Below are positions 1,393-31,646 of a DNA stretch of 50,476 nucleotides, one piece after another. Every line of letters begins with the position of its first letter. The stretch's first letter is position 1. The position numbers and the translations under genes are program-made. This DNA comes from a virus (Duplodnaviria; Caudoviricetes): positions 1-50,476 of the IMG/VR virus record IMGVR_UViG_3300037247_000358, one strand, 5' to 3'. Under the pieces are notes generated by a model. The model saw nothing but the letters and a program-made list of their open reading frames with translations. It did no database searches and was not told where the DNA came from.

Positions 1393-1784
1393 TGCCAACG
1401 CGAAGACGGCTTCCCCCAACCCGAAAAGCCATAATCCATAAGTTCAACCTCGGCGAAACTAGGGTCTACCTCATAGTAGGGCTATATGAGGACGGAACTC
1501 CTGGCGAAATCTTCGTCAACATTAACAAGCAAGGCTCCACCATCTCCGGCCTCATGGACTCCTTTGCCATTCTTATGAGCTATGCTCTCCAATACGGACT
1601 CCCCCTAAAAGAGATGGTAGCCAAATTTAAGCACGTCCGTTTTGAGCCAGCAGGCTTAACAAAGAACAAGGACATTCCTATGGCAAGCTCTGTAATAGAC
1701 TACATCTTTACTTGGCTTGAAAAGGAATTTGTGTTGAAATCGCCTGGAGGCTCTGATGCTACCAGTCCAAATAAACAAGATTGA
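1392..1784 (+). CDS. Stand-alone class II ribonucleotide reductase C-terminal (TSCPD/NrdJb-like) domain
   Basis: RRRLP.TR.AIIHKF...YLIVGLYEDGTPGEIF....KQGSTISGLMDSFA...S.ALQYG.PL......F...RFEPAG.T.N.DI..ASS.IDYIF.WL is the typical NrdJ C-terminal sequence. Confidence 0.85.
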   Translation: MPTRRRLPPTRKAIIHKFNLGETRVYLIVGLYEDGTPGEIFVNINKQGSTISGLMDSFAILMSYALQYGLPLKEMVAKFKHVRFEPAGLTKNKDIPMASSVIDYIFTWLEKEFVLKSPGGSDATSPNKQD

Positions 1785-6588: not shown

Positions 6589-7664
6589 AACGCCATTGCT
6601 GGTTCAGCAGAGGGAGTTGGAAACTTTACCCCAACATCTTCACCGTTCTGGTCGGGCGCCCTGGGATAGGAAAGGGCGAAGCTATGAACCCAATCATTGG
6701 CCTAGTAAAAGAGGCCAACAGTTCCAATGTGTTAAGTGACAAACTGACAATACAATATGTATTGGAAAAGCTCTCAAACGGTTTTGCCGTGACCTCCGTC
6801 GGACAGTCCGGCATCAAAATAGGTATAGATACATCAGCAATTATAGTCTCCTCCGAACTTTCGGTATTCCTCAAGGGGGCAAAGGAAGAACTAGGGACTT
6901 TATGCGACCTTTGGGACAGCAGAGAGCAACCATTTGATTATGGAACTAGATACAAAGGACTATATACAATCGAGAAACCATGCCTCTCGCTACTCGGTGC
7001 CTCAGCACCAGAGTGGTTGATAAAGTCAGTGCCAACTGATGCCTCCGGTGGAGGTTTCACCAGGAGAGTGAACTTTGTGCTAGGTAGCAAGAGGTCAAGG
7101 ACAATTCCGTGGCCACAACTAAACCACGGGCCCGCAAAATCTAACCTGGTAAATGGCTTACAACACATACACACCCATGTTAGGGGTGAGTTCAAGTTTG
7201 CTGAAAGCGCAAAGAAACTGTTTGTGTCTTACCACAAAGACTCAGTACCGGACGAGTATGATGATGAGGCGTTAGCAGGGTACAAGAGCACGAAGTGGGC
7301 ACATGCAACAAAGATTTGCATGGCACTTTCAGCAGCAGAAAGTGACAGTAGGATAATGGAAAAATCCCACCTCGAAGAGGCCATCCAATATGTTGATGAG
7401 GTGGTTAGAACAATACCAGTTGTGTTCAGAGCCTCTGGCGAAAGTGACTTAGTATCCGCAGCGGATAAGGTGTTGAGATTTATGGAAATAAAGGGCTACT
7501 GTACCAGAGGTGAGATACTACACGCCAACTGGCGACACATATCGCAGGATGATTTGACGCTTGTTTTAGCAACTCTGAAAGAGGGTGGGTTGATAACAGA
7601 AATTATACAGGGGAACAGGATTATTTACAAGGTAGTTCCACCAAAAGGAGGAAAGACACCATGA
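6471..7664 (+). CDS. DUF3987-like AAA+ replicative helicase, C-terminal winged-helix-like region, no primase domain
   Basis: LYPNIFTVLVGRPGIGKG (Walker A), SSELSVFL, LCDLWD, PCLSLLGA, GGFTRR; follows the polymerase. Confidence 0.8.
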   Translation: MQQLHGNWIREYLGFIKTTTGSPDCYHWWCAVTVVAAALKRHCWFSRGSWKLYPNIFTVLVGRPGIGKGEAMNPIIGLVKEANSSNVLSDKLTIQYVLEKLSNGFAVTSVGQSGIKIGIDTSAIIVSSELSVFLKGAKEELGTLCDLWDSREQPFDYGTRYKGLYTIEKPCLSLLGASAPEWLIKSVPTDASGGGFTRRVNFVLGSKRSRTIPWPQLNHGPAKSNLVNGLQHIHTHVRGEFKFAESAKKLFVSYHKDSVPDEYDDEALAGYKSTKWAHATKICMALSAAESDSRIMEKSHLEEAIQYVDEVVRTIPVVFRASGESDLVSAADKVLRFMEIKGYCTRGEILHANWRHISQDDLTLVLATLKEGGLITEIIQGNRIIYKVVPPKGGKTP

Positions 7665-8071
7665 CACCTGAAGATATAGGAGAGAAACACGAAAGAGATG
7701 AGAGACGAGCCAGGCGGCTAGCAGTTGACCCAGAGGGGTCATTTAACGACGAGGGTAAATTTGTGCCACCAAAGGGTAAGGGGTTTTACTTGGAGCCACT
7801 ACCCAGCACCCTCATCGTTATTGAGGATGGGTTCAAATATGAAGGGCTTATCGCAATACCTCACCAGGCCCAGCGGCGCTCAACAACAGGTAAAGTCGTA
7901 GCCATTGGTGAGGGGGTAACAAAGGTTCAGGTCGGTGACCATGTTGTTTGGCCACAACTAAGTGGAACTCTGATTAAGTTCCGAGGACACCCTGACTATC
8001 ACATTTTCAATGAGGATGAGATATTAGCTAAGATAATAGGCAACGCAGAGCTAGAAGGCATGGCGGTGTAA
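7661..8071 (+). CDS. groES: GroES/Cpn10-like co-chaperonin
   Basis: LEPL..TLIV....GLIAIP..AQRRSTTGKVVAIGEG...VQVGDHV.....SGT.IK.....Y.IFNEDEILA. Confidence 0.88.
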   Translation: MTPEDIGEKHERDERRARRLAVDPEGSFNDEGKFVPPKGKGFYLEPLPSTLIVIEDGFKYEGLIAIPHQAQRRSTTGKVVAIGEGVTKVQVGDHVVWPQLSGTLIKFRGHPDYHIFNEDEILAKIIGNAELEGMAV

Positions 8072-10826: not shown

Positions 10827-12643
10827 TATAGTTTCCCCATCTGCTCCAACAACTCATCCACAGAAGTTCCTGACTGGAGCTTCATAACCACAAGGTCATC
10901 TATTTCCACGCCAGCGGCCCTAAGTTGTTGCAGCTTTGCTTCAACCTCAACACCGAACTGCCCGCCAGGAAGGCGTTGCTCTAACGCCTTCGCTCTGGCT
11001 CTGAGCCGCTCCATCTTCTCCCTACCAACGGCCTTTTGGGAACCTTTGACGAAGGTTTGAGATTCGATTTGTTCGAGCTTGCCTAGGTAGGCTTTGCTCA
11101 GCTTTGTCTGGTACTTCCGTTTAGCCGCCGCGTCTGTGATTTTGTTAACCGTTCTCAGGATTGAATTTACGCCGTCCCGTAACAGGGTGTTATACTTATC
11201 CCTGATTTGGTCAGCAGCCATGGAGATAAAATCTTCCTGGGTCGGTTTGATGGCCGAGACTGCCTGAATACGCTCGTCAAGGGTAAGAACAACGTTGTTG
11301 GCTTCTTTTAAGGCTTGACCTACTTCAGTGGCCTGGGTGACCTGTTTAGTAACTGGTACAGATGCCTTGGTCGGAGGAAACTGCTTGACAGGGGCACCAC
11401 GAGCAGCACGGAGAGCAGCGTCATTTATATCAGGGGCAAGCGCAGTTGGAGCCGCAGGTGGTGCAGCCGCAGGCTTGGGCACTGGTATCCCAGGCTTTGG
11501 TGTCACCGTCACAGATGGGTTGCTGGCCACACTGATAATGCTTTCACCAGTGTTTAGCCTGAGTTTTTCCAACTCCGTTGGAGCTCTGCCAGTGTAAGAC
11601 CTAAAGGCTTTTTGACGGTTGGCTACTGCTTTGGCACTTGCTACGCCAGTTTTAAGTGCTTCAATATCCGCCTTCCCTGCCTCAACGGCCTTAGCAAACT
11701 CCTTCCGCTCCCGCGGAGACATAGCTGTTTTAGCCTTCGTGGCTGCTCGGTACTCACCCATAATACTAGGGCCGAATTTACCTGCTTCTTGCTCTGTAAG
11801 TTCAGCAAAGGGTTTGCCAACCCTCTTCACAGAAATTTCATCCAGTATCACGGACTTAGTTTTCTGCCCTGCCAAAGCCTGACTCAACTCCGTAGCTGTA
11901 GCAGGGGCCTGTGCTACGGGTGGTTTGCCACGAAGCTGGCGTGCCTTGCTTCGGACACCAGCAATTGCTCTGGGGACAAACGGCAAAACGGCGCTGAGGC
12001 CACCACCTATTAAGGCACCAGTCGCTATGTCTTTTGGTTCCCCAGTGTAAGCGCCAAAGGCAGCGCCAGCCTCCGTCGCGCCAGCAGCAACAGCGCCAAG
12101 TCTCCCGGCCGCAGCTACAGGTGCTAAAGCAGCCCCAGCGCCAGCAGCAACAACAGTTGACGGCGCGAGTCTGCCAGCAAATTCAGCCGTCTTACCTCCA
12201 ATAGTCTCTCTTGTGCCATACTCTTCCAGAAGCTCCTGAATGGGAGCTATGTGCTCCCGCCAAGCCCTTCTGGCCTCTTCTGGAGAGGATGGACGAATAC
12301 CAAGATTAGCAAGAAGTGCCCCAACTTCCCCCATGCCTTTACCAGCACCATACGCGCCAGCGGCCAGTGTGCGGGCAATTGGGCCGCCAATGGCTGCAAG
12401 CCCCTTTTCAACCGGCCTACGTTTACCAAAATCCTTTGGCAATTGTGCCCCGCCCTCACGCATAAAAGACCGCTTGAAGGAGGTCTTGGCTATTTCCTCT
12501 TCATTGAACGTGAGTTTCTGATTCCGCAAACGTGGCTTAACGTGCTTAACAAACAAGTAATTAAGCAATAGCTCACGCTTGGCAGGACCAAGCGCCTCTA
12601 TCCTGTCACGGTGCTTCCGTGCAAATTCCAGTTCACCTGGCAT
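10826..12643 (-). CDS. Probable internal virion/ejection protein (605 aa)
   Basis: Ala/Gly-rich hydrophobic segment (AAGAGAALAPVAAAG...GALIGGGLSAVL) and P/A linker; position. Confidence 0.55.
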   Translation of the reverse strand: MPGELEFARKHRDRIEALGPAKRELLLNYLFVKHVKPRLRNQKLTFNEEEIAKTSFKRSFMREGGAQLPKDFGKRRPVEKGLAAIGGPIARTLAAGAYGAGKGMGEVGALLANLGIRPSSPEEARRAWREHIAPIQELLEEYGTRETIGGKTAEFAGRLAPSTVVAAGAGAALAPVAAAGRLGAVAAGATEAGAAFGAYTGEPKDIATGALIGGGLSAVLPFVPRAIAGVRSKARQLRGKPPVAQAPATATELSQALAGQKTKSVILDEISVKRVGKPFAELTEQEAGKFGPSIMGEYRAATKAKTAMSPRERKEFAKAVEAGKADIEALKTGVASAKAVANRQKAFRSYTGRAPTELEKLRLNTGESIISVASNPSVTVTPKPGIPVPKPAAAPPAAPTALAPDINDAALRAARGAPVKQFPPTKASVPVTKQVTQATEVGQALKEANNVVLTLDERIQAVSAIKPTQEDFISMAADQIRDKYNTLLRDGVNSILRTVNKITDAAAKRKYQTKLSKAYLGKLEQIESQTFVKGSQKAVGREKMERLRARAKALEQRLPGGQFGVEVEAKLQQLRAAGVEIDDLVVMKLQSGTSVDELLEQMGKL

Positions 12644-12647
12644 GTTA

Positions 12648-13928
12648 TTACTGCTCGAAACCTATCTCCTGCAAAGCAGAGCTTCCCATCAATGTCAGCA
12701 TATCTTGTATTTCCTGGTTTGCCCGTTGGGCATTCTGCATTTCTAATAGGGCAGCCTTAGCTTCATCAGAATCCCCCTCACCAAGTTTTACATACTCTCG
12801 ATACACCTGGCTGTAATAATTGAGCCGGTTGCTGTGAAACTTAGCCATGCTGGCAAACATTAAACCAGCTTTGCCCTGTGCCATGTGACCCTGGATTTCC
12901 GCGGCTGCAATGCCTCGTGCCTTAATGAACGCTAGTCCGTTTTGACGCCTCTTCTCCAATTGGTCCATCGCTAACTTGCCCTGTTGAACCAACAAAGCGT
13001 TCTTAGCCTGTATTTGGGTATCCAGCATTACAGACTCATGTTGGCGGGATGCCTGTCCCATAGATGTAGCATGTTCCTGTGCTTCTAGTTGTCCAGCAGA
13101 AGGTTTCAACCCACCAGTAATTCTAGCAACATCCTGAGCCTCAGCACCAGACAACAAGGCTCCGCCCGCAGCACCACCCATCTGAGCAGCCGCTTCAGGA
13201 CTGCGACCAGCAACGGTTTGCATCCCCTTCAGAAGCGTGTTCCTCAGCATCGAAGCCGCATCCGGTGATGGTAACAGTTTACCACCCACGGTACGACCGG
13301 CTCCAGGTTGGCCACCACCCTGGCCACCGCCCTGCTGGCCACCCTGACCGCTTTTAACAATTGCATCATGGAAACCTGACACCTCAGGTGATGGCTCCTT
13401 CTTAGGAGCATCCGGAAGTGTAAACTGAACAAACTTCTCAGCCTCCTTCATAAACTTTTCATCTGTGACGTATGCCCGAATGGTCTCCTTGTCGCCGTTT
13501 TGAATGGCAAGAAGAAGCTGAGCTACTTTGTTGGACATTAGTGCTTTCTTCTGGGCAACCCGTGATGCCTTCCATCTACCCACCACCTCGCTAAGGTTCT
13601 TCATTGCACCAGCAACAACGGCCCCAGTTCTGGCCTGTTTCGTCGGAAATGAAAACCCCGTTTGAAAAGCAGGATGCTGAGGCCGCGGGCCTGCACCTGG
13701 TGCCTGAACCTGCTGAGGCATGGTTGCTCCTGCTACAGGAAACGGCGTAGCCAATCGCTGCGGTGCTCCACCGACCTGACCTGGAATCATTTGGACACCA
13801 CCACCGCCAGGGCTGACAGCGGAGAGAAATTCACCTACACCCCCGACAGCCTTGAAGATGTTTTCAGCCTTGCTGGGCTTCTTATCGGGTGACTTCTTTT
13901 TCTTTTCTTCTTCGCCGTTGTGTGGCAT
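12648..13928 (-). CDS. Probable internal virion/ejection protein (426 aa)
   Basis: G/Q/A-rich; position. Confidence 0.5.
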   Translation of the reverse strand: MPHNGEEEKKKKSPDKKPSKAENIFKAVGGVGEFLSAVSPGGGGVQMIPGQVGGAPQRLATPFPVAGATMPQQVQAPGAGPRPQHPAFQTGFSFPTKQARTGAVVAGAMKNLSEVVGRWKASRVAQKKALMSNKVAQLLLAIQNGDKETIRAYVTDEKFMKEAEKFVQFTLPDAPKKEPSPEVSGFHDAIVKSGQGGQQGGGQGGGQPGAGRTVGGKLLPSPDAASMLRNTLLKGMQTVAGRSPEAAAQMGGAAGGALLSGAEAQDVARITGGLKPSAGQLEAQEHATSMGQASRQHESVMLDTQIQAKNALLVQQGKLAMDQLEKRRQNGLAFIKARGIAAAEIQGHMAQGKAGLMFASMAKFHSNRLNYYSQVYREYVKLGEGDSDEAKAALLEMQNAQRANQEIQDMLTLMGSSALQEIGFEQ

Positions 13929-13948
13929 AATTACATCCTCACTAACTA

Positions 13949-14950
13949 CTAATCACCACCGCCAAAAATCCCGGCAAGTGTTTCAGTAAGTTCAGCCCCG
14001 CCACTTAGCAACGCCCCAACACCACCAAGGCCAAACTCCTTACTGACAATCCCCGGTGTCGTGGTAGCCGCCCCAAAACCTAAATTCAACAACGGACTGT
14101 ACTCTGGACGAGTCCTGATAAATTCGTTCATCAGTCGGTTGATGGACTCCTGGTCAAGACCTTGCAGATATTCACCAAACTCACCGCCCATACCTGTAAG
14201 AAATTGTCCAGCGCCAAGCTGACGGCCACGGGCGGACTCCATCGCGCCAGTTTCCATCATGGCAAGCAAAGCATTCTGGTCAAGAGCCGTCTGGGACTGA
14301 AAGTCCGTCATTGCTGTCCCGAATGGGCTCCCAGCCAGGTTGCCTGTGAATGCAAACTCCTCACGGAGCCCAGCCTCACGTTGGCCGATATTCCGCTCCT
14401 GCGCCGCAATCATGGCTTGCCATGCGGGCAGTTGAGAAATGGGAAGCCCCGTTTCAGAGAACTGTTGCATAATATCGAGACCTGGCTGGCCTCCACCGCC
14501 CTGACCCTGGAAGAATTGCATAAGTTGTTGGGCGACAGGATTCAAGGGAGCAGAGACCTGGCCAGGGCCAGTGGCACCACCACTGGGTAGCTGTGCTTGC
14601 AGATTGAACGGAGTTGCCCCCTGGCCTGTTTGGGTGCGAAGCCAGTTGATGAAGTCACCAGCAAACCCCGGGAACGTTTGCGGAATCTGTGAAAAACCAC
14701 GACCAAGGTCCCGAAGGCCAGTCGGCAGTGTCCCACCAGCTCTTTCACCTGAGGGCGCTTGTGGCACCATACCTGGCTGACTTGCAGGCTGATTTACAGG
14801 AGGCAAATTATTCTGCGGCAGGCCCGGCAGTGCAGGAAAATACTGATTAGATGCACCGCCTCCACCCCCACCTCCACCTCCAGCGCCTCCGCCTCCACCA
14901 GGCCCAAAGTTTGGAAACATGCCCTTAAACATATCACCTTGCTGCGGCAT
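13949..14950 (-). CDS. Probable DNA pilot/ejection protein (333 aa)
   Basis: G/Q-rich with amphipathic Gly-rich C-terminus; first gene after the adaptor. Confidence 0.55.
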   Translation of the reverse strand: MPQQGDMFKGMFPNFGPGGGGGAGGGGGGGGGASNQYFPALPGLPQNNLPPVNQPASQPGMVPQAPSGERAGGTLPTGLRDLGRGFSQIPQTFPGFAGDFINWLRTQTGQGATPFNLQAQLPSGGATGPGQVSAPLNPVAQQLMQFFQGQGGGGQPGLDIMQQFSETGLPISQLPAWQAMIAAQERNIGQREAGLREEFAFTGNLAGSPFGTAMTDFQSQTALDQNALLAMMETGAMESARGRQLGAGQFLTGMGGEFGEYLQGLDQESINRLMNEFIRTRPEYSPLLNLGFGAATTTPGIVSKEFGLGGVGALLSGGAELTETLAGIFGGGD

Positions 14951-15805: not shown

Positions 15806-18433
15806 CTAGTTCGCCTCAGTCGTGGTGTTGGCTAGGGGTTGGGACACCAAAATGTAAATCCTCGCCTGCCCTGCGCTGGTATCGGCGTGGTCGCCGCCTG
15901 TGAGGTCGCACTGAATCTCTATATCCCCACTTGCTACGAGCATGAAGGGGGCAAATTTGTCCGTAGTATCAAACAGCAACGCACCCTTACCTCCGCTTGC
16001 TGTCGCATCGTGTAACTCGTACACCGTAGCGGCGGAGAAGAAATTGTCGTCCAGCGTGAGGTCGTTGGCTGAGCCTGCTGCTGTCCCGACCGAGCAGACA
16101 GCGGCTGACACTGGCCCTGTTCCTGCCCAAGCAACCACGACCGTTCCCACAACGTCGTGAATCATGGTGTTGGCTGGTAGCGTCCATAGGACGAAGTCGT
16201 CCGCCGTTGCCGCAGCAACTAAGTCGGTGTGGTCAACCTGTTTGAAAATCCAGCGGGGTTGATTTGATAAGGAACCTTCTAACGGATTGCCGACTGCTAC
16301 TACAAAAGCATCGTCTGTCTTGAGTGTGTCAGCGGCGCTACGGTAGAGGTTGGTGTCAACAGCAGAGTCTCCCGGCCCCCAACTTTGTTTCCCTCCTGCC
16401 GTGATTTGCCATCTGTTAGAGGTATCTCCTGTAACTACTGAATGAAAACCAACGTCAGTAGTCGCACTTGCCCGCTTTTGGAGACTTGTATTGGGGGAGT
16501 TAGGCAAGCGAAGAATAGCTCCGCTTCCAACCCAATCCAACGCCGCTTCTTGGTTGGGGCCAAACTCAATTCCAGATTTGTCGCGGCGGATTCGGAGACG
16601 AAGGTTGGAGCCCGTGTCGTCATAGAAATCAGAATGGGCAGTGGAGGATGGCGCTCGATACTCCGTCGCAGAAAAAGGCCCACGCCGAAGAGTGCCAAGA
16701 GATTGGAGCGCAGGGGAACCATCCTGCCGGTGGCCTTCCCAGTAGTTGTCTGAACCACTGTCGGTTATCTCGGTAGAGAAAGCCCCAATCACGCCAATGT
16801 TGAGAAACCTATTGTGGGTAGAGTTCGCGTCGGCGGTTATGAGTTTGACGGCGGAGGCACTGAACGCCGGAGTGCCAACACGAGAGAGCCTGTCTTGAAA
16901 TGTCCCGTCGGTCGTGTTGACTAATTCAAGGCCGTTTCCGACTCCCGAACCAGCGTCGTTGGGTGTGCCCAAACTAAAACCTCTAAAAACTGGGTATTCG
17001 CAGTTCGTGCACTTGACTTGGGGTTTTTCTCCTCTACCTTCCGTTTGCCAATTCGTGAAGGAAAAGTCAATGGAGTTTATAAATTCATAACAAATAGCGT
17101 TGCGGTTGCCGTCGCAGAAAGATACATCAAACTCACTGCCAACAAGACGACCCTGAAAGAGTTGGGAAAATCCACCACGCCGGATACTAGAGTAAATATT
17201 GGTCAGGGAAGACGAATGGAATCCAGAAGCATCGAACGTGCTGAAGTCTGCTGTATCGGTCTTGAGGCAGATAGTATCGAAGTTCCATGCTCCACCGGCA
17301 CCAGGGTCGCAGTAGAGGCGATTCACCGTGGAGAATTTGATATTCCCTTCGAGGTAGATGAAAGTGTCGTGAAACTCGTTGTCACCCTCGACCAGTATGT
17401 CCTCAAGGTCAATCTGTAAGAGTTCAAACAGAATTTCGGCCTGAGTGGACTTGAGTGTGGGTTTGTAGTTAATTGCCATCGTTCCCGTAACGCTCGGGAG
17501 CTTGAAAGTGAGATTACTAATGGATTGATGCCATGCCCGTGTAGCAGATACTTCCCATTCTACTAATGCTCGATTGGTTGGGAAGGTAGGCCCACCTGTG
17601 ATACGAGCGCAACGAAGGCTTACACCTACCAAATGGACTATATTAGTTGGTGTCAACCCTGTGCGGGGCAGGATTAGGGGAGACGAAATTAAGTAGTTGC
17701 CACAAGGAAAGGACACCGGTGTTCCCTGAATACCAGCGGACCCTATAACCTTGGCCGCGTCAATCGCAGCCTGAATCGCTGCTGTGTCATCAGTTATTCC
17801 ATCCCCTAGCGCCCCAAAACTCTTTACTGAAATAGGGTTTGTTCCATTTGCAATGCAGTTAGTCATTCCAGAAAGACGCAAACGGATACAATCAAGGTCG
17901 GTGTTATACCAAACATCGCCTTCTACCAGCGTCATTGTTCCTTCTTGTGCTGTGGTACGTTCTGTCAGACGAAGTTGACCAACTCCAGAGACACCAACAG
18001 TTCCACAAAAAGTAATCAGCCTGGTTGTTGTGTCGTAGTAAAACTCCCCCACCGTACAACCAGATGGCACTGCTGTAGAACCAGTCAACAGGTAACTACT
18101 GGAGCTTGCCAAATGTACATCTTCGATGGTGGTATCAGCCAACCCAGGGACAGATATTAAAATGTCGTATACCCCTGGAATAGCGTAAAATGTATAATTC
18201 CCAAGGGAATCAACAGCAAATGGGTTAGACAACGACCCACCAACGGCCGTGGAGAAAATTCCACCTGGGGGTTTTGTGGTTGTATTAGGCAAAAACACAG
18301 TTATTGCAGCAGTCGTAATCGGCGTGCCAGTAGAACTAAGAACTACATCTCTGTGAGCCGTGAGACTTAGTTGAGCATCCGCTGTGGATGACAAGAGCAG
18401 CAAAGTGAGCAAAAACAGAAGCAGCTTCCTCAT
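15806..18433 (-). CDS. Tailspike/receptor-binding protein with pectate-lyase-like beta-helix and N-terminal signal peptide
   Basis: SVKSFGALGDGITDDTAAIQAAIDAA...FPCGNYLISSPL; anchor-like NPFAVDSLGNYTFYA..GVYDI; N-terminus MRKLLLFLLTLLLLSSTADA. Confidence 0.85.
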   Translation of the reverse strand: MRKLLLFLLTLLLLSSTADAQLSLTAHRDVVLSSTGTPITTAAITVFLPNTTTKPPGGIFSTAVGGSLSNPFAVDSLGNYTFYAIPGVYDILISVPGLADTTIEDVHLASSSSYLLTGSTAVPSGCTVGEFYYDTTTRLITFCGTVGVSGVGQLRLTERTTAQEGTMTLVEGDVWYNTDLDCIRLRLSGMTNCIANGTNPISVKSFGALGDGITDDTAAIQAAIDAAKVIGSAGIQGTPVSFPCGNYLISSPLILPRTGLTPTNIVHLVGVSLRCARITGGPTFPTNRALVEWEVSATRAWHQSISNLTFKLPSVTGTMAINYKPTLKSTQAEILFELLQIDLEDILVEGDNEFHDTFIYLEGNIKFSTVNRLYCDPGAGGAWNFDTICLKTDTADFSTFDASGFHSSSLTNIYSSIRRGGFSQLFQGRLVGSEFDVSFCDGNRNAICYEFINSIDFSFTNWQTEGRGEKPQVKCTNCEYPVFRGFSLGTPNDAGSGVGNGLELVNTTDGTFQDRLSRVGTPAFSASAVKLITADANSTHNRFLNIGVIGAFSTEITDSGSDNYWEGHRQDGSPALQSLGTLRRGPFSATEYRAPSSTAHSDFYDDTGSNLRLRIRRDKSGIEFGPNQEAALDWVGSGAILRLPNSPNTSLQKRASATTDVGFHSVVTGDTSNRWQITAGGKQSWGPGDSAVDTNLYRSAADTLKTDDAFVVAVGNPLEGSLSNQPRWIFKQVDHTDLVAAATADDFVLWTLPANTMIHDVVGTVVVAWAGTGPVSAAVCSVGTAAGSANDLTLDDNFFSAATVYELHDATASGGKGALLFDTTDKFAPFMLVASGDIEIQCDLTGGDHADTSAGQARIYILVSQPLANTTTEAN

Positions 18434-18447
18434 TCCATCCTCCGAAC

Positions 18448-18464
18448 TGTTTACACTATAAACA
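18448..18464. promoter_or_regulatory. TGTTTA-N5-TAAACA palindrome, site 2 (parS-like)
   Basis: AACTGTTTA-CACTA-TAAACAGTT, 9-bp arms spanning 18445..18467. Confidence 0.75.
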
Positions 18465-18837
18465 GTTTGATAGCTATGGTTCCAACAGTGGCTTTTAGTG
18501 TTATTTGACTAACTGTCGCAGCCACAGTCCCGTCGTAAACATCCACAGCAGCAGCCTTGACCATTACTAAATAACCTGCTGGTAATCTGCCAAGACCATG
18601 AGTCACTGTGAAATCGGTATTTGGTGTGCCAGGGGTTGTCACAGAAACCCAAGTGCCTTCAATGTTCTCGGAGTCAGTACCGTCACCGAATCCGATTCTG
18701 CCGTTCAAGGCCCTGGCAATCTCCTCATGTTGGCGTTTCAGGGTCAGTAGTAAGTCACGAAACCACGCCTCGTCGTAGCGGCTGGGGACTCTAACCTCCA
18801 ACGTAGGTGCAACTCTACCCACGCTTCTCACCCGCAA
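18451..18837 (-). CDS. Small tail protein
   Basis: VTHGLGRLP motif; lies between nozzle and tailspike. Confidence 0.55.
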   Translation of the reverse strand: MRVRSVGRVAPTLEVRVPSRYDEAWFRDLLLTLKRQHEEIARALNGRIGFGDGTDSENIEGTWVSVTTPGTPNTDFTVTHGLGRLPAGYLVMVKAAAVDVYDGTVAATVSQITLKATVGTIAIKLFIV

Positions 18838-20413
18838 GGCTGTAAATGGGAGCGAATTCTACAAAACTAGCATTCGCTCCGGCGTCGCCGCTCACTTCCC
18901 AGGTCAGGAAAACCCCGTTGACTTTGAATGCAATAACCTTTGACAACGCTCTACCAGTACCAGTACCAACGGCAACAGTTTGTGTCTCCGACTGCCCATC
19001 CTCATTCGTGACCTTGAGGTCAAAGGTCACTGGGCCGTTGTCAACCATCCCAAGGCGGAACTTTACAATGGTTTTCCTGTGCCGTCGGCTACCGAGTGTA
19101 AGCTCGCCACTTCGTATTAACCAATTGGACTCTGACACAGTACCAAAATCAAACAGCCCAAAGGTTCCGTCGTCAAAGCCGATTCCAAAGGAATCCAAGG
19201 GATTGTTACTTTGCAGCGTAGCTGGGGTCCACTGCTGGTCTTGAATAGTACCAATCAGGTCAAGAATGCGAACCAACTCTGCGGCAGAGAAATCACCCAT
19301 GGTCCTGATGATTCTATCAAAAGTAAATCTTGTCCAACTCTCCTCGTTAAAGTTGTAAACCCAGGTAGAGCCGTTTGGTATGTTAAGCCAGTAGGCCAAG
19401 AAATCATTGCCATCAATACCTGTGGTAATAAATCCCTTAACAAGGTTCAGATTAGCCAACAACAACTCAGCCATAATCCGTTTCTTTGCGCCAACACGCC
19501 CCCTGAATCCTTGCAGCGGAGCATCTCCAATGCCAATTGATTCACTGGCATTGAACATATAGATATTGTCTTTGCCAACATAGCAGGCTATTTGCTCGCC
19601 ATAAAAAGCCAGAGAATGCGGAGCAATGTTACCTTTGGCACGGGAAGTCAGCGGCCTGAAATCAAACGGTCGCAGCCCAAGACCTGTGGGAATGACCTGC
19701 GTGATGCCCCACTGCTGCATAATATAACCGTTTTGGTATAGTTTGCCCATTCCAGCAATGGGGCCAAGGTCGTTGAACAGGTCATTGACACCAGCATTAA
19801 AGCCGGTCCAATCTGTGGTATCACCTGCGGCTGTCCACCTAACACGCTGATGCTGTACACCAGAATCAACAAGGTTGCCAACAACTAGGTGTTTGTTCAA
19901 CTCCATCATAAACTTTGCTGGGACAGCATTAGCATCTGCATCCGCAAATGTTGCAGTGCTACCGTCCCACACCTGCACTTTGTCAACACCTTGACAAAAC
20001 AAAAGCTGATTAGCTACAACTGTCCAAGTGAACAGGTCATCCACACCACCAGTAAGACCTCCAGCCTTTGTAATTTCAGTCCAACCTGTTCCACTTCCAT
20101 CCCAACGGAATAGTCTATCTTCCCCGATTCGTACCTGAATACGAGTTCCATCAGAACGAAAGAAATCTGCGATGCCATTTGGTGGCTCTGTCGGGGTCGA
20201 GGGCAAGGCATTCAGAGTCGTATACCCGGGCCGTGTAGAAGCCCTGCCCTTGCGAAGAATCATGTTAAGGCATTCTTGAAACCCCTCTCGGCCAATCAAA
20301 TCTGAAGCGACTTCAGACTGGATACCACCGAAGGGCCCAAGCATCTGATACTCAGGGAGTTCATGGGAACGGAGTTCTCCCTCAAACTGACGAGTAAACT
20401 GGGAGGAGCCCAT
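18815..20413 (-). CDS. Tail nozzle/packaged-DNA stabilization protein (P22 gp10/T7 gp12-like beta-propeller)
   Basis: PFGGI...ECLNM......TRPG N-terminus, VRWT..GD.TDW, YNF....WT beta-rich repeats; size and position. Confidence 0.7.
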   Translation of the reverse strand: MGSSQFTRQFEGELRSHELPEYQMLGPFGGIQSEVASDLIGREGFQECLNMILRKGRASTRPGYTTLNALPSTPTEPPNGIADFFRSDGTRIQVRIGEDRLFRWDGSGTGWTEITKAGGLTGGVDDLFTWTVVANQLLFCQGVDKVQVWDGSTATFADADANAVPAKFMMELNKHLVVGNLVDSGVQHQRVRWTAAGDTTDWTGFNAGVNDLFNDLGPIAGMGKLYQNGYIMQQWGITQVIPTGLGLRPFDFRPLTSRAKGNIAPHSLAFYGEQIACYVGKDNIYMFNASESIGIGDAPLQGFRGRVGAKKRIMAELLLANLNLVKGFITTGIDGNDFLAYWLNIPNGSTWVYNFNEESWTRFTFDRIIRTMGDFSAAELVRILDLIGTIQDQQWTPATLQSNNPLDSFGIGFDDGTFGLFDFGTVSESNWLIRSGELTLGSRRHRKTIVKFRLGMVDNGPVTFDLKVTNEDGQSETQTVAVGTGTGRALSKVIAFKVNGVFLTWEVSGDAGANASFVEFAPIYSLAGEKRG

Positions 20414-21111
20414 TAACCTTTACTCACTGTGACCACCAACATATCAAACTCGATGGTCCCAGTACCACTGCCATTTTTGATTCCACTCTTGACGGTGATT
20501 GTGGAAGCAATGCTCTCTGTGGGTTCAGTGCCTGAAATCTTAACTGGGACGTTGAATCCAGCAGACCCTTGACCTATTGCTCTCTGGGAACTAGAGCCAA
20601 CGATGATAACATCCGCTGTCAACAGCCCACGAATAGTGTTCTGAAAAGCACCAGAATCACTATAGGCTAGTATCTCAGTAGCGCCAAATTCGAGAAGGGC
20701 TGTTGGAGGACCTCCCGCAGCAACGGTCATTTTGTAGCGGGCGACCACCCTAATATAACAACCAGTTACAAGGAAGTTACCAGGAATAGAGATTTGGTTG
20801 CCATCACCCGCAGTTATAGAACTCACAGTGACAAGCGAAGAATCAACAAAAGTCCTGTTAATTGACACTAGCGACCAGGCCGAGCCTGTCCACCGATACA
20901 ACTTCCCCTCATCCTCCGCAAAGAACAAAGCTCCAATGTTGGCGTTGCCAAAATCCGCCTCAGGTGTCTCACGGTTGGCAATCTTACCTGCGCCGAAGGC
21001 TCCGATGCGCTCTGCGGTGTCCTCCTTGTCCCGACGAATGTTTTGGCCCAGCAGATTGGCAGCTTGAGTATCTGCTGGAATGTTATTGTCCCAGGGTCTC
21101 GTAAAGGCCAT
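20413..21111 (-). CDS. Probable short tail fibre/virion protein (start moved to MAFTRPW)
   Basis: GGGAG RBS; GALFFAEDEGKLYRWTGSAW fibre-type motif. Confidence 0.6.
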   Translation of the reverse strand: MAFTRPWDNNIPADTQAANLLGQNIRRDKEDTAERIGAFGAGKIANRETPEADFGNANIGALFFAEDEGKLYRWTGSAWSLVSINRTFVDSSLVTVSSITAGDGNQISIPGNFLVTGCYIRVVARYKMTVAAGGPPTALLEFGATEILAYSDSGAFQNTIRGLLTADVIIVGSSSQRAIGQGSAGFNVPVKISGTEPTESIASTITVKSGIKNGSGTGTIEFDMLVVTVSKG

Positions 21112-21112
21112 G

Positions 21113-21520
21113 CTAGATAACTCCCTGCTCTGTCTTAAAATTACGAATTGGCAACTCAAAATGGCCCATATCCCGTTTCCGCCACTGCCCACCCCACCTC
21201 AAACCCAGGGCCTCGCCTATTTTGCCAAGACGTTGCCAGACAGGGTCTTTAGCGTCAAAATTCAGCTTGTCAGGGCCGTGTAGGTCATATTGCTGATACG
21301 GCGCTACGTCAATGGCAAGAGCCTTGCCAAAGGGATGCTGCGGCAAATGTCGTGAGTTCTTAGTCCAACTCCGTCCTGCCTTCAACAACTTCGTTTGCTC
21401 CGCAAGGGTACGGCCTGTAAATATAATAACCAATGGAATCCGTGCCTCCGCACAGCGGGCGAGAAATTCGACCGCTATCGGACGGAACCGTGGGTCTAGG
21501 TCATTGAGTTTTTTGCTCAT
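21113..21520 (-). CDS. Endolysin, peptidase M15 family (L-Ala-D-Glu peptidase-like)
   Basis: GRTLAEQ..L, SRH, A.AIDV, WGGQW..RDMGHFEL. Confidence 0.88.
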   Translation of the reverse strand: MSKKLNDLDPRFRPIAVEFLARCAEARIPLVIIFTGRTLAEQTKLLKAGRSWTKNSRHLPQHPFGKALAIDVAPYQQYDLHGPDKLNFDAKDPVWQRLGKIGEALGLRWGGQWRKRDMGHFELPIRNFKTEQGVI

Positions 21521-21947
21521 AGCGTCGCCAGAGCAAGAACAAGATTAGAAAACCCAACCCAGCTAACAGCACAGTAATTATCCGCAGGTTGCTGGGCGGG
21601 GCAGGCACAGTCAGGTCAACATTGACCTCGTTTGACGGGCCACTTTCGATGGAGAAACGCTCAGCAGTCGCGGTGTAGAAATAGTTTTTGCCCACTGGCA
21701 CAGCAGTATCCGTAAAGGTGAGTACCAAAATTGGGCTTGAGTTAAGTTTGGCGCAGCTCGCGTCTGGTGGCACACTCGTACAACCACCCACCACTTCTGA
21801 GCGGTAGGCATTGTAGGTAACACCTACCGAAGGCGAAGCGTCCCAAGCGAGTTCGACCTTTCTTGTCGCTTGAGCATTTACATCACTGCCAACAGAAACT
21901 ATCAAAGTCACAGCCAGTCCAGCAATCAGTAGCCAACGCCGTTTCAT
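21501..21947 (-). CDS. Exported fibronectin type III domain protein with C-terminal membrane anchor
   Basis: Signal peptide ending VNA; VELAWDAS...YNAYRS...FTDT.V..G..YFY...A....ESGPSNEV; TM IITVLLAGLGFLILFLLW-RR. Confidence 0.8.
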   Translation of the reverse strand: MKRRWLLIAGLAVTLIVSVGSDVNAQATRKVELAWDASPSVGVTYNAYRSEVVGGCTSVPPDASCAKLNSSPILVLTFTDTAVPVGKNYFYTATAERFSIESGPSNEVNVDLTVPAPPSNLRIITVLLAGLGFLILFLLWRRYEQKTQ

Positions 21948-22020
21948 TTCAGTTTCTCCATTTACTCAGCGTCCAGAACCAACTCCCAAGAATTAGACAA
22001 AGCAGATGAACTGACATCTC

Positions 22021-22776
22021 CTAGTTATCTCGTAACACAAAATTCCATCCAGCAGAAGCTATGACACCACCAGCTGCACTTTTTGCCTGTATCACAACAT
22101 CGCTTTTCTCTGCTACCAACAGTGTGTTTTCAAAGTCGTGCTGAGCATCACTTTGGAATATACCAAAATTGAATTTAGTCTGGAAAACCTCTCCCAGTAC
22201 CCGCACTCGTAACCGGAACGAAGCATCATCATTCTTTCCCACATCGCCGAACATTTTCCCTATAATCATGGTCTTTCCGGCTGGTACGGTGTAGTGGGTC
22301 TGAAGGGTTTGGTTGACGGCAATCTCTATCTGACCAATTACGTTTGCACCAGCGTCTTTGGCTATGATGACTCCTGCATTCCCTCCTCCACTACCTGCGG
22401 TAACAACAAACATACGATTAAGGCGCAGGAAAGTGGCTGTGGTATCCACAGGGTTAGTGCCATCCATAGTTACAGTTTCTTCTACTGGATTGTAGTCACC
22501 ATCCAAGCCAATCAGTCGAACGGTGAGGGCACCCGCCATTCCAGCATCGTCGGTTGCTCCGCCTTCTACCGCTAGGGTTTCGGCAGAAGATAGATAAGTT
22601 TTCGCACCACTGTTCGTCCAAACATCTTCATAGCTCGTGCCTACACCAGAGTTCATCCCAAATTTGTTGTCGGCGCTGTAACGGCTACGAAGCCCTGTGG
22701 CTACTGGCCAAGGGGTTTGAGCGGTGAGAAAAACTACTGAGATTATAAGGACTGCAATCAAGCTAATGCGTTTCAT
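22021..22776 (-). CDS. Beta-rich virion-type protein with signal peptide
   Basis: MKRISLIAVLIISVVFLTA; KFG.N..V....EDVW, GA.TV...GLD..Y....E pattern. Confidence 0.65.
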   Translation of the reverse strand: MKRISLIAVLIISVVFLTAQTPWPVATGLRSRYSADNKFGMNSGVGTSYEDVWTNSGAKTYLSSAETLAVEGGATDDAGMAGALTVRLIGLDGDYNPVEETVTMDGTNPVDTTATFLRLNRMFVVTAGSGGGNAGVIIAKDAGANVIGQIEIAVNQTLQTHYTVPAGKTMIIGKMFGDVGKNDDASFRLRVRVLGEVFQTKFNFGIFQSDAQHDFENTLLVAEKSDVVIQAKSAAGGVIASAGWNFVLRDN

Positions 22777-22782
22777 CTTCCC

Positions 22783-23778
22783 TCACTGGATGTACGAGGC
22801 ACCAACCGAGTAGGTCGCTTCATCAGCATCAGCCACCGCTATTCGAAGCACCCAAGTACGAGGCAACGCGATAGACACAGCTTCGGTGCCATTGAAATCA
22901 GCGGCCAGGACACCCGGATAAATCAGATAAATGTCCGTTCCTACTGCCGTGGCCGCAGCCGCAGCTGTCCAAATAGTTACGTCTTTCCCCGATACTGGGT
23001 CTTTCATCAAGATGCTGGGAGTAAGGCCCACGCTGGCCGCATCAACCGTGATGTCCAGAATTATCATTACACCCCTAGCGTTGTAGTTTACTTGGTCGGT
23101 GGAATCAGTTTGGGCAGTGCGGGCAGCGGAGGCAAGTAGGGTTACTTCTTCGTTGTTACGCTCGCGGTCCCAAAGAGTACCGTTAAAAAGAAACCCGGCG
23201 ACAGCTAATTTTCGTGAAGCTGTAGAAGAGATAAAAGGCTGAGCTATACTGTTAGTGTCACCGTCGCTGCCGGTGATAGTCTGTCCAAAGACGAGTACTC
23301 CCTCGTTAGTTGTGAGCAGAGTCTGCGCGTTGGTGCCATCTGAACCAGCAACTAGAACTGGGCTACCCGCTACTGCTGCTCCATCCGCTGCTGCGCCTGT
23401 GGTGGGTGATTCAGAGATATACCCCAACAAGGTAGCGTTGACCGTTCCACCGGTAAGCACGGTAACGTTTAGCCGAACATAGAGTGGGTGCCCGGTTGTA
23501 AACACCGATATTCCACTGGAGGTGCAGGTCTGCCCTGCTATCAAATCCGACCAGGAGGAGTTATCCTCTGACTGTTCTAGCTTCACCGTACAGGTCGCAG
23601 GAGTGGAGACTGCGACCCAACGTATTCTCCACTCGCTTGCTCCTGTACTTCGGACTAGAACTGAGGTTCCAGTCGTGACAGAGGAAAAAGCTATCTGCTG
23701 AAGCACAACAGGGTTATCCGCCCTTAAGGGGAGGGCAAGAACCAACCCTAGAAGTAACGTCGAGAGAAACTTACGCAT
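22783..23778 (-). CDS. Beta-rich virion-type protein with signal peptide
   Basis: MRKFLSTLLLGLVLALPLRA-D; FNGTLWDRER, LLASAARTA. Confidence 0.65.
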   Translation of the reverse strand: MRKFLSTLLLGLVLALPLRADNPVVLQQIAFSSVTTGTSVLVRSTGASEWRIRWVAVSTPATCTVKLEQSEDNSSWSDLIAGQTCTSSGISVFTTGHPLYVRLNVTVLTGGTVNATLLGYISESPTTGAAADGAAVAGSPVLVAGSDGTNAQTLLTTNEGVLVFGQTITGSDGDTNSIAQPFISSTASRKLAVAGFLFNGTLWDRERNNEEVTLLASAARTAQTDSTDQVNYNARGVMIILDITVDAASVGLTPSILMKDPVSGKDVTIWTAAAAATAVGTDIYLIYPGVLAADFNGTEAVSIALPRTWVLRIAVADADEATYSVGASYIQ

Positions 23779-23789
23779 ACCAATCCTCC

Positions 23790-24068
23790 TTAATCTGTAG
23801 CAATCAAAACCCGACCTGAGTCAATAGTGTCAACAATCAACCCTGGTATCCAAAGTGGCCTTGCAAAGGCTGTTTCTACCGGACTGAACTCTGAGTTACC
23901 TTTTCCTGACCACACGATATTGCCGTTTGCATCTTTGACTATGGCTGTATGTGCCGCGGCGGAGTATTCTACAAAGGCAATTGAGGTTACCTTGATACGG
24001 CCTGTGTAGATAACGTCAGCTGCGGCGGTGTCGATAGACCAAACACGTCCGCTAATATCATTTGCCAC
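23790..24068 (-). CDS. Small virion protein (start moved to GTG, MANDISG)
   Basis: GGGAGGG RBS before GTG 24068. Confidence 0.6.
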   Translation of the reverse strand: MANDISGRVWSIDTAAADVIYTGRIKVTSIAFVEYSAAAHTAIVKDANGNIVWSGKGNSEFSPVETAFARPLWIPGLIVDTIDSGRVLIATD

Positions 24069-24270
24069 GAAGCCCTCCCCAGCGCCTTTTGCTTTTTTGA
24101 GGGATACGACCCTCAAGATGTTTCATTTTCATGTCGTTGGTGAAAACATCCCACATAACATCCATTTTGGTCTTAACTTCACCAATCCAAACACTCAGAC
24201 GGATAAGCTGTACTACACCGCCTATGATTGCTGCCAATTCCACAACCTCAACAGCATCTCGAATGTTCAA
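24058..24270 (-). CDS. Single-TM protein, holin/antiholin-like
   Basis: Hydrophobic LAAIIGGVVQLIRLSVWIG followed by a basic tail. Confidence 0.45.
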   Translation of the reverse strand: MNIRDAVEVVELAAIIGGVVQLIRLSVWIGEVKTKMDVMWDVFTNDMKMKHLEGRIPQKSKRRWGGLRGK

Positions 24271-25039: not shown

Positions 25040-26017
25040 CTACGCGACTGGGACTGCAATTGAGAGGCCGTTGTCTCCGACCTCAGCTTCGGCGTCATCC
25101 TCACAGAAGTTGCCGTTCCAATTGTCGCTGGTTCCAGCAACATAGACGGCGGTACTGTAATCGCCACCCATGTAATTCCCGGTAACTACGTTGTTACTCC
25201 CACCACTCAAGCTGAGATGTTTCGTAACCGCGTTCTCGCCATTCGGCCCGAAAGTGCAGCCTTGGACATAACTACCCTTTAGGGCAGCCACGATGCCGTT
25301 TTTGCAATCTCGAAACCAACAGCCCAGGATGTGACCCTGTGGGAAGGTAAAACCACCAGGTTCGTCGGTAACAGCAGCCAAACCTGCTGTTGGGAATAGT
25401 TGGAACTCACAGCTGACAATCCGGAAGTTCCCGACTGCCTTGAGGGATATACCATCACAGCCAGCTACTGCGCCATAGATTACGCAGTGGTCTACCGTAA
25501 GGCCCGGTGCCCAGTTGTTACTGCCGGTTGAAGAGGCCGCCGCCATTTCGGCTCGTAGGCAGATAGGAGCACCGACGTCCGCAACGATGCGGAAACCACT
25601 AACCCGCCAGCCCTGTGAGCGGATGAATAGAGTGTGTTCAGTGCCCGGTTGGTTGAAGAGTTGTGGGTTGTCGTAAGGTAGCGGCCGAGTGGGGCTCGCA
25701 CCAATCAGATTGCAAAATCGCCCCCGCCCTGCGACTGGTACAGTGACAGCGGTCATACTACCCAAACTCTGCCCAGTAGTCATCTTTTCGTTGTAGCTAC
25801 TCGGCATGACGATGATGGAATCGAAGTCTTTGACAGTATCCAAGGCTTTCTGAACCGTAGCGAAGGCCCGGTCGAGTGAAAGCCCAGTCCTACCATCGTT
25901 ACCATTGATTTTATCCACGAAGTAAACCTGGTTGAAGGCTATCAGACCCATACCATCTGCACCAGGGAGTACAGGTACTCCAGCACTTACAAGCCCACTA
26001 AAATGTGACAATGCCAT
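25040..26017 (-). CDS. Right-handed beta-helix virion protein (probable head fibre/decoration)
   Basis: YFVDKINGNDGRTGLSLDRAFATVQKALD followed by parallel beta-helix repeats; near the capsid gene. Confidence 0.7.
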   Translation of the reverse strand: MALSHFSGLVSAGVPVLPGADGMGLIAFNQVYFVDKINGNDGRTGLSLDRAFATVQKALDTVKDFDSIIVMPSSYNEKMTTGQSLGSMTAVTVPVAGRGRFCNLIGASPTRPLPYDNPQLFNQPGTEHTLFIRSQGWRVSGFRIVADVGAPICLRAEMAAASSTGSNNWAPGLTVDHCVIYGAVAGCDGISLKAVGNFRIVSCEFQLFPTAGLAAVTDEPGGFTFPQGHILGCWFRDCKNGIVAALKGSYVQGCTFGPNGENAVTKHLSLSGGSNNVVTGNYMGGDYSTAVYVAGTSDNWNGNFCEDDAEAEVGDNGLSIAVPVA

Positions 26018-31427: not shown

Positions 31428-31646
31428 CTATCCAGAGAGAATCCTGTCACGCTTTTCTGCATTGGATTGCCAGCGAAGCAAATCGTCTTGGGTTATTGGC
31501 TGTCCCAATCGAGCAAGAGCTAAGGCTCCTGTACCTACAACATCTTGCAGCATTTTGACCAGGTCAGCGGTCCGCTTATCGAGATAAGGGGTTGCCAACC
31601 CGGCCCCAAGATTCGTCAACAAAACAATCAAAGCTCCGAGTCCCAT
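31428..31646 (-). CDS. Small membrane-associated protein
   Basis: Hydrophobic N-terminus; coupled to the lipoprotein gene. Confidence 0.55.
   Translation of the reverse strand: MGLGALIVLLTNLGAGLATPYLDKRTADLVKMLQDVVGTGALALARLGQPITQDDLLRWQSNAEKRDRILSG

Follow-up and report, generated by a model that had tools for sequence, protein, structure and literature searches.

To our knowledge, tailed phages assemble in the cytoplasm in every case that has been studied. The IMG/VR record IMGVR_UViG_3300037247_000358, a complete podovirus-like phage genome of 50,476 bp with direct terminal repeats according to its record data (analysed at full length and called the window here), raises the question of what four late proteins, a tailspike-like β-helix protein among them, would do with N-terminal leaders of the kind that direct proteins into the host Sec pathway. 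We find that the leaders stand at the true starts of their genes and are kept by selection, as homologues bear unrelated leaders of the same type, and the comparison of these families makes export of all four proteins very probable. We propose that the exported tailspike folds in the periplasm and may meet the particle only at lysis. The features on which the argument turns are listed below, with the three neighbouring proteins named by their length in residues.

15806..18433, minus strand: tailspike-like β-helix protein, 875 residues, precursor with leader (open reading frame; Pfam PF12708)
18374..18433, minus strand: tailspike leader, residues 1–20, predicted cleavage ADA↓Q (home-made rule; Shine–Dalgarno motif)
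17984..18373, minus strand: mature tailspike N-module, residues 21–150, with the Cys126/Cys143 pair (identity to P0047 and P0048)
21501..21947, minus strand: p148, leader (residues 1–25, VNA↓Q), fibronectin type III (FN3)-like domain with Cys56/Cys66, C-terminal membrane anchor (open reading frame; phmmer)
21528..21581, minus strand: p148 hydrophobic anchor, residues 123–140, followed by the basic tail RRYEQKTQ (Kyte–Doolittle)
22021..22776, minus strand: p251, leader (residues 1–19, LTA↓Q) and jelly-roll domain (phrog_8198)
22783..23778, minus strand: p331, leader (residues 1–20, LRA↓D), variable β-rich N-domain, ADGAA-GNPVL repeats and C-domain (open reading frame; family alignment)

A sequence-only reading of this DNA had given these four late genes Sec-type leaders behind ribosome-binding sites, and on both points it holds: all four open reading frames (ORFs) are present on the minus strand with the N-termini that it described, and each opens with an ATG behind a Shine–Dalgarno (SD)-like motif (GGAGGA for the tailspike, 4 nt upstream of the start, and GGAGAA, GAGGGA and AAGGAGGA for the other three). 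Within the first 40 codons, no usable in-frame start was found downstream of the hydrophobic segments; the only alternatives are codon 25 of p331 and codons that themselves belong to a hydrophobic segment. Leaders were scored with a crude, home-made rule, not SignalP, which asks for a basic n-region, small side chains at positions −3 and −1 and a Kyte–Doolittle mean of 2.3 or more over 10 residues. All four pass, with two to three Lys or Arg residues and best 10-residue means of 2.75–3.47 (two basic residues and 3.25 for the tailspike), and the predicted cleavage sites (ADA↓Q in the tailspike, VNA↓Q in p148, LTA↓Q in p251 and LRA↓D in p331) place Gln at +1 in three of the four. Across the window, the rule flags five of 82 greedy-longest ORFs, namely the four and a 94-residue membrane protein at 43212–43496, together with 4 of 153 leftover ORFs; among genes of at least 150 residues, it flags 3 of 33 in the window compared with 14 of 510 in 61 other phage loci (Fisher p = 0.08). 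As this within-genome excess is only marginal, the case rests on the comparison of homologues and not on enrichment.

Other classes of N-terminal signal were considered. A lipoprotein (signal peptidase II) signal would have a lipobox with Cys at +1; no Cys lies in or just after the c-region of any of the four leaders, which are thus not of this class. Twin-arginine translocation (Tat) signals carry a twin-arginine motif before a mildly hydrophobic h-region; the leaders of the tailspike, p251 and p331 contain no RR. In p148 the leader includes KRRW, yet the h-region there is strongly hydrophobic and KK or RK replaces the twin Arg in most of the family, and a Tat signal was set aside for p148 on these two grounds. 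Signal-arrest-release (SAR) domains, which are weakly hydrophobic N-terminal segments rich in Gly, Ala and Ser, were ruled out, the h-regions here being rich in Leu, Ile and Val with the Kyte–Doolittle means given above.

For the tailspike, comparison with relatives bears on the gene start itself. The stored database call (P0045, 778 aa) begins at residue 98, omitting the leader and most of a conserved N-module. Identity to the homologues P0047 and P0048 is 60% and 45% in the leader (residues 1–20), 91% and 83% in the N-module (residues 21–150; 118 of 130 and 106 of 128 aligned residues) and 22–31% and 25–31% over residues 151–700. Because residues 21–150 are kept at 83–91%, the long ORF is coding and the stored short call is overruled. 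In an alignment of eight proteins (the window's own stored call and seven homologues, with leaders judged by inspection), five of the seven homologues have a leader, of three unrelated types, and two have none. P0047 and P0048 share the leader type of the tailspike (ending ANA↓Q) along with the next 130 residues; in P0046 and P0052, a leader of unrelated sequence (YG↓Q) runs straight into a later part of the protein; P0050 opens with a third type (HA↓Q); and P0049 and P0051 are leaderless. The identities to P0047 and P0048 show a leader that keeps its character, not its sequence. Further afield, four loci (L003–L006) encode proteins of about 1,145 residues of which the first ~110 are 32–38% identical to the tailspike and that open with a hydrophobic stretch leading to ARA↓Q or AHA↓Q; the L006 copy alone is flagged by the rule. 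In L004 and L006, the gene after the spike relative encodes a small leader-bearing protein, homologous to p148 in L006 (E = 6e-8) and with an FN3-like N-terminal stretch in L004 that is near-identical by eye only, and in both loci a leader-bearing spike with a related N-module thus precedes a small FN3 protein that has a leader as well. A supposed sharing of p249-like and p532-like genes beside the spike in L006 was dropped (BLASTP E = 1.1 and 0.035).

The architecture behind the leader resembles that of a phage depolymerase. Residues 201–312 match PF12708 (Pect-lyase_RHGA_epim; E = 4.5e-14) in Pfam, residues 197–278 align in Protein Data Bank (PDB) sequence searches with GH55 glucanases, pectin lyase, mannuronan epimerases and the Sf6 tailspike, and 15 PHROG families match, 13 of them in the 'tail' category and all confined to residues ~170–256. 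Within the N-module, residues 31–111 resemble CarboxypepD_reg weakly (E = 0.0097, under the Pfam cut-off), and no match to a known particle-binding domain was found in Pfam or PDB sequence searches. A conserved N-module ahead of a variable centre is nevertheless what one usually sees where a docking module carries an enzyme part that can be swapped, and these sequences may be read in that way. Complex prediction of residues 22–160 with p128, p249 or the FN3 domain of p148 gave a score of 0.00 against a mark of 0.32 and favours neither side.

The sequence-only reading had also raised disulfide formation between paired cysteines, and this stands in part. The 14 cysteines of the tailspike are gained and lost together across homologues as C126/C143, C440/C448 and C780/C842, and partly so for C375/C389; in a small sample of related sequences, cysteine counts are even (4–14) in six of six leader-bearing tailspike homologues, compared with 2 and 5 in the two leaderless ones. 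In the p148 family, C56 is nearly invariant and C66 is present in most members. On the other hand, the four proteins taken together are not enriched in cysteine (1.12 versus 1.17 per 100 residues), and it is the pairing alone that informs. The O-glycosylation sequon of Bacteroidota, D[ST][AILVMT], occurs nine times in the mature spike against 4.8 ± 2.0 expected, a weak excess reached by 77 of 2,000 shuffles.

Leader-bearing and leaderless forms also coexist in the p331 and p251 families, for which the stored database calls (P0167, 331 aa, and P0394, 251 aa) include the leader. Among 75 members of the p331 family, itself included, 17 are flagged, with at least six unrelated leaders and Gln next in most; P0240 has a leader-like N-terminus that the rule leaves unflagged, and several relatives with 52–70% identity over the shared part have hydrophilic N-termini. 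The strongly conserved C-terminal domain of p331 (about 130 residues) is present in 48 genes at 47 of 61 other viral loci, all leaderless, and in six contigs of metagenome-assembled genomes (bins of five phyla and one unclassified), in which no matched gene has a leader. This domain stands alone (~120–160 aa) in many phage contigs (for example, L012 7995–8360, L014 7911–8390 and many of L034–L073) and elsewhere forms the C terminus of proteins of up to ~475 residues, making it a widespread phage module with no named family. The AlphaFold2 model of p331 is poor (predicted local distance difference test (pLDDT) 55.6). In the p251 family, 9 of 45 members (query included) are flagged; the flagged relatives are its own clade (P0001–P0004) and four scattered distant members with unrelated leaders, and P0005 and P0006, 49% identical to p251, have short hydrophilic N-termini. 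Since leader-bearing and leaderless homologues coexist, the leader is a lineage-specific add-on for the tailspike, p331 and p251. That of p148, by contrast, is a family trait.

The protein p251 matches phrog_8198 over its full length (E = 5.7e-40; residues 23–251 on profile positions 41–262 of 262), and its AlphaFold2 model (mean pLDDT 92.5) has a helix at residues 2–18 and is all-β thereafter. The closest predicted structures are uncharacterized phage proteins (template modelling score 0.78–0.88), and matches to solved structures are fold-level ties (Z of 8–9.5 over ~100 residues) among a haloarchaeal tailed-virus head turret, PBSX XepA, TNF/C1q-type knobs, capsid cement proteins and a tail-fibre tip. 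As modelled, p251 has the sort of jelly-roll that serves in knobs, turrets and cement; no function follows from this. By tblastn, the mature part (from residue ~24) is found in 55 phage records, mostly of cyanomyoviruses. Of the two records examined, S-H9-1 labels its leaderless homologue gp083 'virion structural protein' and S-SCSM1 labels S-SCSM1_31, likewise leaderless, 'virion protein'; for S-SCSM1, 45 virion proteins are reported by mass spectrometry of CsCl-purified particles (PMC9602691). A locus search with a seven-sequence p251 subset returned one locus, and no p251-like gene was present in the 60 further viral loci obtained with the p331 C-domain search.

The fourth protein, p148, stands apart. 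The exact 148-residue record in Atlas includes the leader. The core (residues ~28–122) has 1,386 phmmer relatives at E ≤ 0.001, among them giants of as many as 40 repeats, which their sources call fibronectin type III proteins and which would be cell-surface proteins. Small relatives were defined as the 35 single-domain proteins among the best 150 of the 1,386 matches; 29 of the 35 are flagged for a leader. The assignment to FN3 is indirect, with no Pfam match even at E ≤ 1 and PF00041 present in 70% of the proteins of one Atlas cluster; small viral proteins make up the clusters nearest to p148 in Atlas. The C-terminal anchor (a 17-residue window with a mean Kyte–Doolittle value of 2.95, from residue ~122) recurs among the 35 solely in P0245, the closest relative at 70% identity. 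The hydrophobic stretch with the basic tail behind it fits a type I membrane protein whose FN3 domain is predicted to lie outside. The gene overlaps the start of the endolysin gene by 20 nt, and relatives of p148 adjoin holin-like membrane genes in L002 and L004. In L004, a 78-residue holin-like protein with two hydrophobic segments (12353–12589, plus strand) directly follows the small leader-bearing FN3 gene, and the same unit may occur split, as in this pair, and fused, as in the anchored p148. Unimolecular spanins combine an N-terminal outer-membrane lipoprotein signal with a C-terminal transmembrane domain and are encoded beside the endolysin; p148 was considered as one (T1 gp11 type) given its anchor and endolysin adjacency, but it has no lipobox Cys and so is not a unimolecular spanin, despite the spanin-like layout and position. 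Contrary to what had been supposed, p148 is not a decoration protein, given a small-FN3 family in which leaders prevail, the membrane anchor and the endolysin overlap. It looks lysis- or envelope-linked and may act near the lysis machinery.

Several known systems resemble parts of this arrangement. The P22 gp9 and Sf6 tailspikes start with the particle-binding domain and are assembled in the cytoplasm, and tailspikes of P22 can be joined to completed heads in vitro. Like these, the window spike has a β-helix glycanase behind a conserved N-module, with the receptor-binding part swapped; unlike them, it has a predicted cleavable leader, a weakly CarboxypepD_reg-like module and paired cysteines. 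A precedent is Cellulophaga phage phi18:3 (NC_021794), a cultured podovirus in which gp085, gp086 and gp087 open with leaders ending SQ, AQ and AQ and are labelled in the record as virion structural, structural and tail protein, respectively, 'based on experimental MS/MS proteomics analysis'. These three are consecutive large late proteins and lie just upstream of small membrane proteins and the endolysin; unlike the window, phi18:3 has a Bacteroidota host and almost no SD-like motifs.

Export of late phage proteins has been described in other settings. Sec-exported and SAR endolysins, such as the lysin of Oenococcus phage fOg44, use the host Sec pathway before lysis (PMC8878798, PMC6834076); these are lysis enzymes, whereas the endolysin of the window is leaderless and the leaders are on spike- and lectin-type proteins instead. 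The Pantoea stewartii enzyme WceF is an exported trimeric β-helix protein that resembles a tailspike in its head, neck and helix and cleaves the exopolysaccharide of its producer; it differs from the window spike in being encoded by a chromosomal bacterial gene, in its Tat rather than Sec signal and in having no particle link in the account of it (PMC7949094). XepA of PBSX is a late protein encoded beside holin and endolysin genes, exported before lysis and reported as absent from particles (PMC6834076). Like p251, it is a jelly-roll or β-sandwich late protein (tied fold match at Z 9.4, root mean squared deviation 2.9 over 103 residues); unlike p251, it turns up in literature on non-classical, signal-peptide-independent secretion, and the match shows no homology. 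The literature searched gave us no account of tail fibres or spikes with leaders, of the phi18:3 leaders or of the mechanism proposed here. The sole relevant remark found concerns Porphyromonas gingivalis phages, in which five genes whose function is unknown and whose signal peptides place Gln after the cleavage site (the 'Q-rule') are read as modifiers of the host outer membrane (PMC10367356), the passage concerned making no link to tail fibres, tailspikes or particle maturation. The arrangement had been called undescribed; in print this is consistent with what we found, although leader-bearing proteins labelled structural on MS/MS evidence were already present in GenBank record NC_021794.

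The minus-strand late operon encodes the large terminase (phrog_38, E = 4.9e-58 in the PHROG profile search), an SU10-type portal, an HK97/Mu-gpT-type capsid protein and p325, continues through several small proteins to p108, p331, p251, p148 and an M15 endolysin, and then encodes p232, p532, p128, the tailspike, p249 and four large proteins, two of them Gly-rich. Three further genes enter the argument.

21113..21520, minus strand: endolysin (Peptidase_M15_4; Pfam PF13539, E = 1.2e-9; phrog_465 endolysin, E = 1.2e-22)
18815..20413, minus strand: p532, two genes upstream of the tailspike, a protein of virion type with no leader (phrog_3287 'virion structural protein', E = 2.1e-28)
25040..26017, minus strand: p325, second β-helix protein, leaderless, two genes after the capsid gene (weak Beta_helix match)

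The endolysin has neither a leader nor a membrane segment and its N terminus is not hydrophobic. Of five tblastn matches of p532 in phage records, four coincide with features that bear the label 'phage stabilization protein'; p532 has no Pfam match and, in a single-protein scan, no IMG/VR relative, and neither p532 nor p249 has a sequence relative among solved structures. The Beta_helix match of p325, a protein with nine cysteines, is under the Pfam cut-off (E = 1.9e-4); no relative was found in the cultured-phage collection and no particle-binding domain is recognizable, and p325 could be a head fibre, a second spike or an alternative appendage.

Other genes complete the picture of the phage. 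Two ORFs for single-pass membrane proteins are holin candidates: one of 70 aa (24058–24270, minus strand), which overlaps p108 from just upstream and so heads the p108–p331–p251–p148–endolysin block, and one of 72 aa (31428–31646, minus strand) flanked by the terminase and portal genes. The surroundings of the endolysin showed no spanin pair. At 12648–14950 (minus strand), proteins of 426 and 333 aa contain long Gly/Gln/Pro-rich low-complexity stretches and no cysteines and are followed by proteins of 605 and 626 aa without a family match; position and composition suggest that the 12648–14950 proteins are ejected internal proteins. On the plus strand are replication genes, including a DUF3987 primase/helicase-type protein, an FtsK-like ATPase, an 856-aa protein (4018–6588) that joins an N-terminal uracil-DNA-glycosylase-superfamily domain to a 3′–5′ exonuclease and a family A DNA polymerase, and a ParB N-terminal domain fused to an N6/N4 DNA methylase (1756–3054). 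A Cpn10/GroES-like protein with a charged N-terminal extension of ~55 residues is encoded at 7661–8071 (plus strand); the phi18:3 record also lists two GroES-like genes (gp080 and gp096). No tRNA genes were found in the window.

On these grounds we propose the following sequence of events. The tailspike, p251 and p331 would have acquired a host-type leader for Sec and signal peptidase I in this lineage, their relatives elsewhere being leaderless. Late in infection, all four proteins would pass through SecYEG and lose the leader, three times before Gln. Folding would take place in the periplasm, where the paired cysteines of the tailspike and the Cys pair of p148 could form disulfides, and p148 would stay attached to the inner membrane on the outer side, its gene being translationally overlapped with that of the endolysin. 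When lysis merges the compartments, the spike would meet DNA-filled particles and dock through its mature N-module, and p251 and p331 would probably join the particle as well. We infer export, cleavage and disulfides; joining the particle at or after lysis is speculative. That last step is plausible for the tailspike, given its gene among tail-type genes, its conserved N-module and the phi18:3 precedent, less secure for p251 and p331 and unlikely for p148. Taken as a whole, this composite of export, periplasmic folding and joining at lysis is our best explanation, held with roughly even confidence.

A number of observations weigh against this proposal. Presence of any of the four proteins in a particle is conjectural, and the leaderless p325 could be the real appendage. 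The 'tail' PHROG matches of the spike span the β-helix cap alone, which is common to cellular glycanases, and the ties of p251 are only fold-level and include XepA, exported yet absent from particles. S-SCSM1_31 may or may not be among the 45 proteins detected by mass spectrometry. The phi18:3 proteins are analogues, not homologues, of the window's proteins (best BLASTP E = 8e-4 over 156 residues of β-helix), and mass spectrometry of purified particles may catch co-purifying envelope material. The genome-wide excess of leaders is marginal, the rule flagged just one of the four spike relatives in L003–L006, and the stored spike call begins past the leader. This last point, with the few spurious ORFs that pass the rule (4 of 153), is what would favour wrong starts or chance hydrophobic N-termini, a reading that the comparative data already contradict and to which we give next to no credence: SD motifs precede all four starts, no usable start lies downstream, spike residues 21–150 are 83–91% identical in relatives and leaders occur on independent homologues in all four families.

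If the hydrophobic N-termini are real, they could still serve something other than export, as uncleaved membrane tethers, oligomerization helices or cytoplasmic assembly handles, with the proteins joining particles on the cytoplasmic side. Established knowledge of cytoplasmic assembly in every studied tailed phage speaks for this, translocation is itself a prediction, and the modelled leader helix of p251 is what any hydrophobic segment would give. We nonetheless consider it improbable, as all four have the full n-, h- and c-region layout with small residues at −3 and −1, with basic residues on the N-terminal side only and the C terminus directed outwards; unrelated leaders of the same layout, mostly before Gln, recur on homologues; paired covarying cysteines accompany the leader-bearing forms; and the relatives of p148 are repeats of giant FN3 proteins inferred to be at the cell surface. 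A weightier possibility, to which we would give a substantial minority share of belief, is that the proteins are exported and stay free, in the periplasm or released: late in infection, the spike-like enzyme and lectin-like p251 and p331 would cut or bind host surface polysaccharide, freeing progeny from debris, destroying receptors or aiding lysis, with a leaderless protein such as p325 as the real appendage. The p331–p251–p148 block lies directly upstream of the endolysin gene and overlaps it, a small FN3 protein sits beside holin-like membrane genes in L002 and L004, the β-helix cap is common to secreted cellular glycanases and epimerases, and a leaderless second β-helix protein is at hand. 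WceF, a bacterial enzyme with the full tailspike fold that is exported and trims exopolysaccharide (PMC7949094), and XepA, an exported lysis-cassette protein absent from particles (PMC6834076) and among the folds tied with p251, also speak for this possibility. Yet the spike gene lies outside the lysis block, between p532/p128 and the Gly-rich internal-type proteins, and the N-module is far better conserved than the enzyme part, the pattern of a docking domain. The relatives of p251 in cultured cyanophages are labelled virion proteins, leader-bearing proteins of phi18:3 have MS/MS-based structural labels, and p325 has neither a recognizable particle-binding domain nor a cultured relative.

SD-like motifs precede 34 of 59 hand-listed starts in the window compared with 274 of 2,000 random positions, and 33 of 68 starts (49%) compared with 16% of random positions in a second count. 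Values are 58% versus 14% in L002, 40% versus 10% in L004 and 27% versus 9% in L006, compared with 2 of 60 (3%) versus 9% in phi18:3, which infects Cellulophaga, and 1 of 19 (5%) versus 8% in the Bacteroidales-binned contig L012. Gln at +1 in three of the four window leaders, and A↓Q in many homologue leaders by inspection, conform to the Q-rule, which averages 71% in Bacteroidetes and is also high in Ignavibacterium (77%) and some Chlorobi, Acidobacteria going unmentioned in the text of that paper (PMC5837995). Heavy SD use makes a typical Bacteroidota host improbable, and the host is probably a diderm outside this phylum; among the Atlas structure rows for p148, Acidobacteriota is the commonest name, a lead only.

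Textbook accounts have tailed-phage particles completed in the cytoplasm. If the spikes and knob proteins of a whole group of phages mature in the periplasm, the last assembly step would take place at or after lysis, and disulfides and other modifications made in the envelope would become available to receptor-binding proteins. Trimming or ignoring such N-termini would be a misreading by gene callers and annotators, as in the stored spike call that drops 97 residues, and depolymerases of this kind would have to be expressed in the periplasm when made recombinantly. Homologues with and without a leader form a mosaic that amounts to a natural experiment on a virion protein changing compartment. 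If the proteins are instead free exported enzymes, they would represent phage-encoded late remodelling of the host surface, with a bearing on superinfection exclusion and progeny release. More broadly, and with somewhat less than even confidence, we suggest that tailed phages of several diderm host groups, beyond Bacteroidota alone, send host-recognition parts such as tailspikes and lectin-like knob proteins through Sec for periplasmic maturation, with disulfides and a blocked N terminus, and fit them at lysis to DNA-filled particles built in the cytoplasm, leaderless cytoplasmic and leader-bearing periplasmic versions of the same structural families being switched by the gain or loss of about 20 codons.

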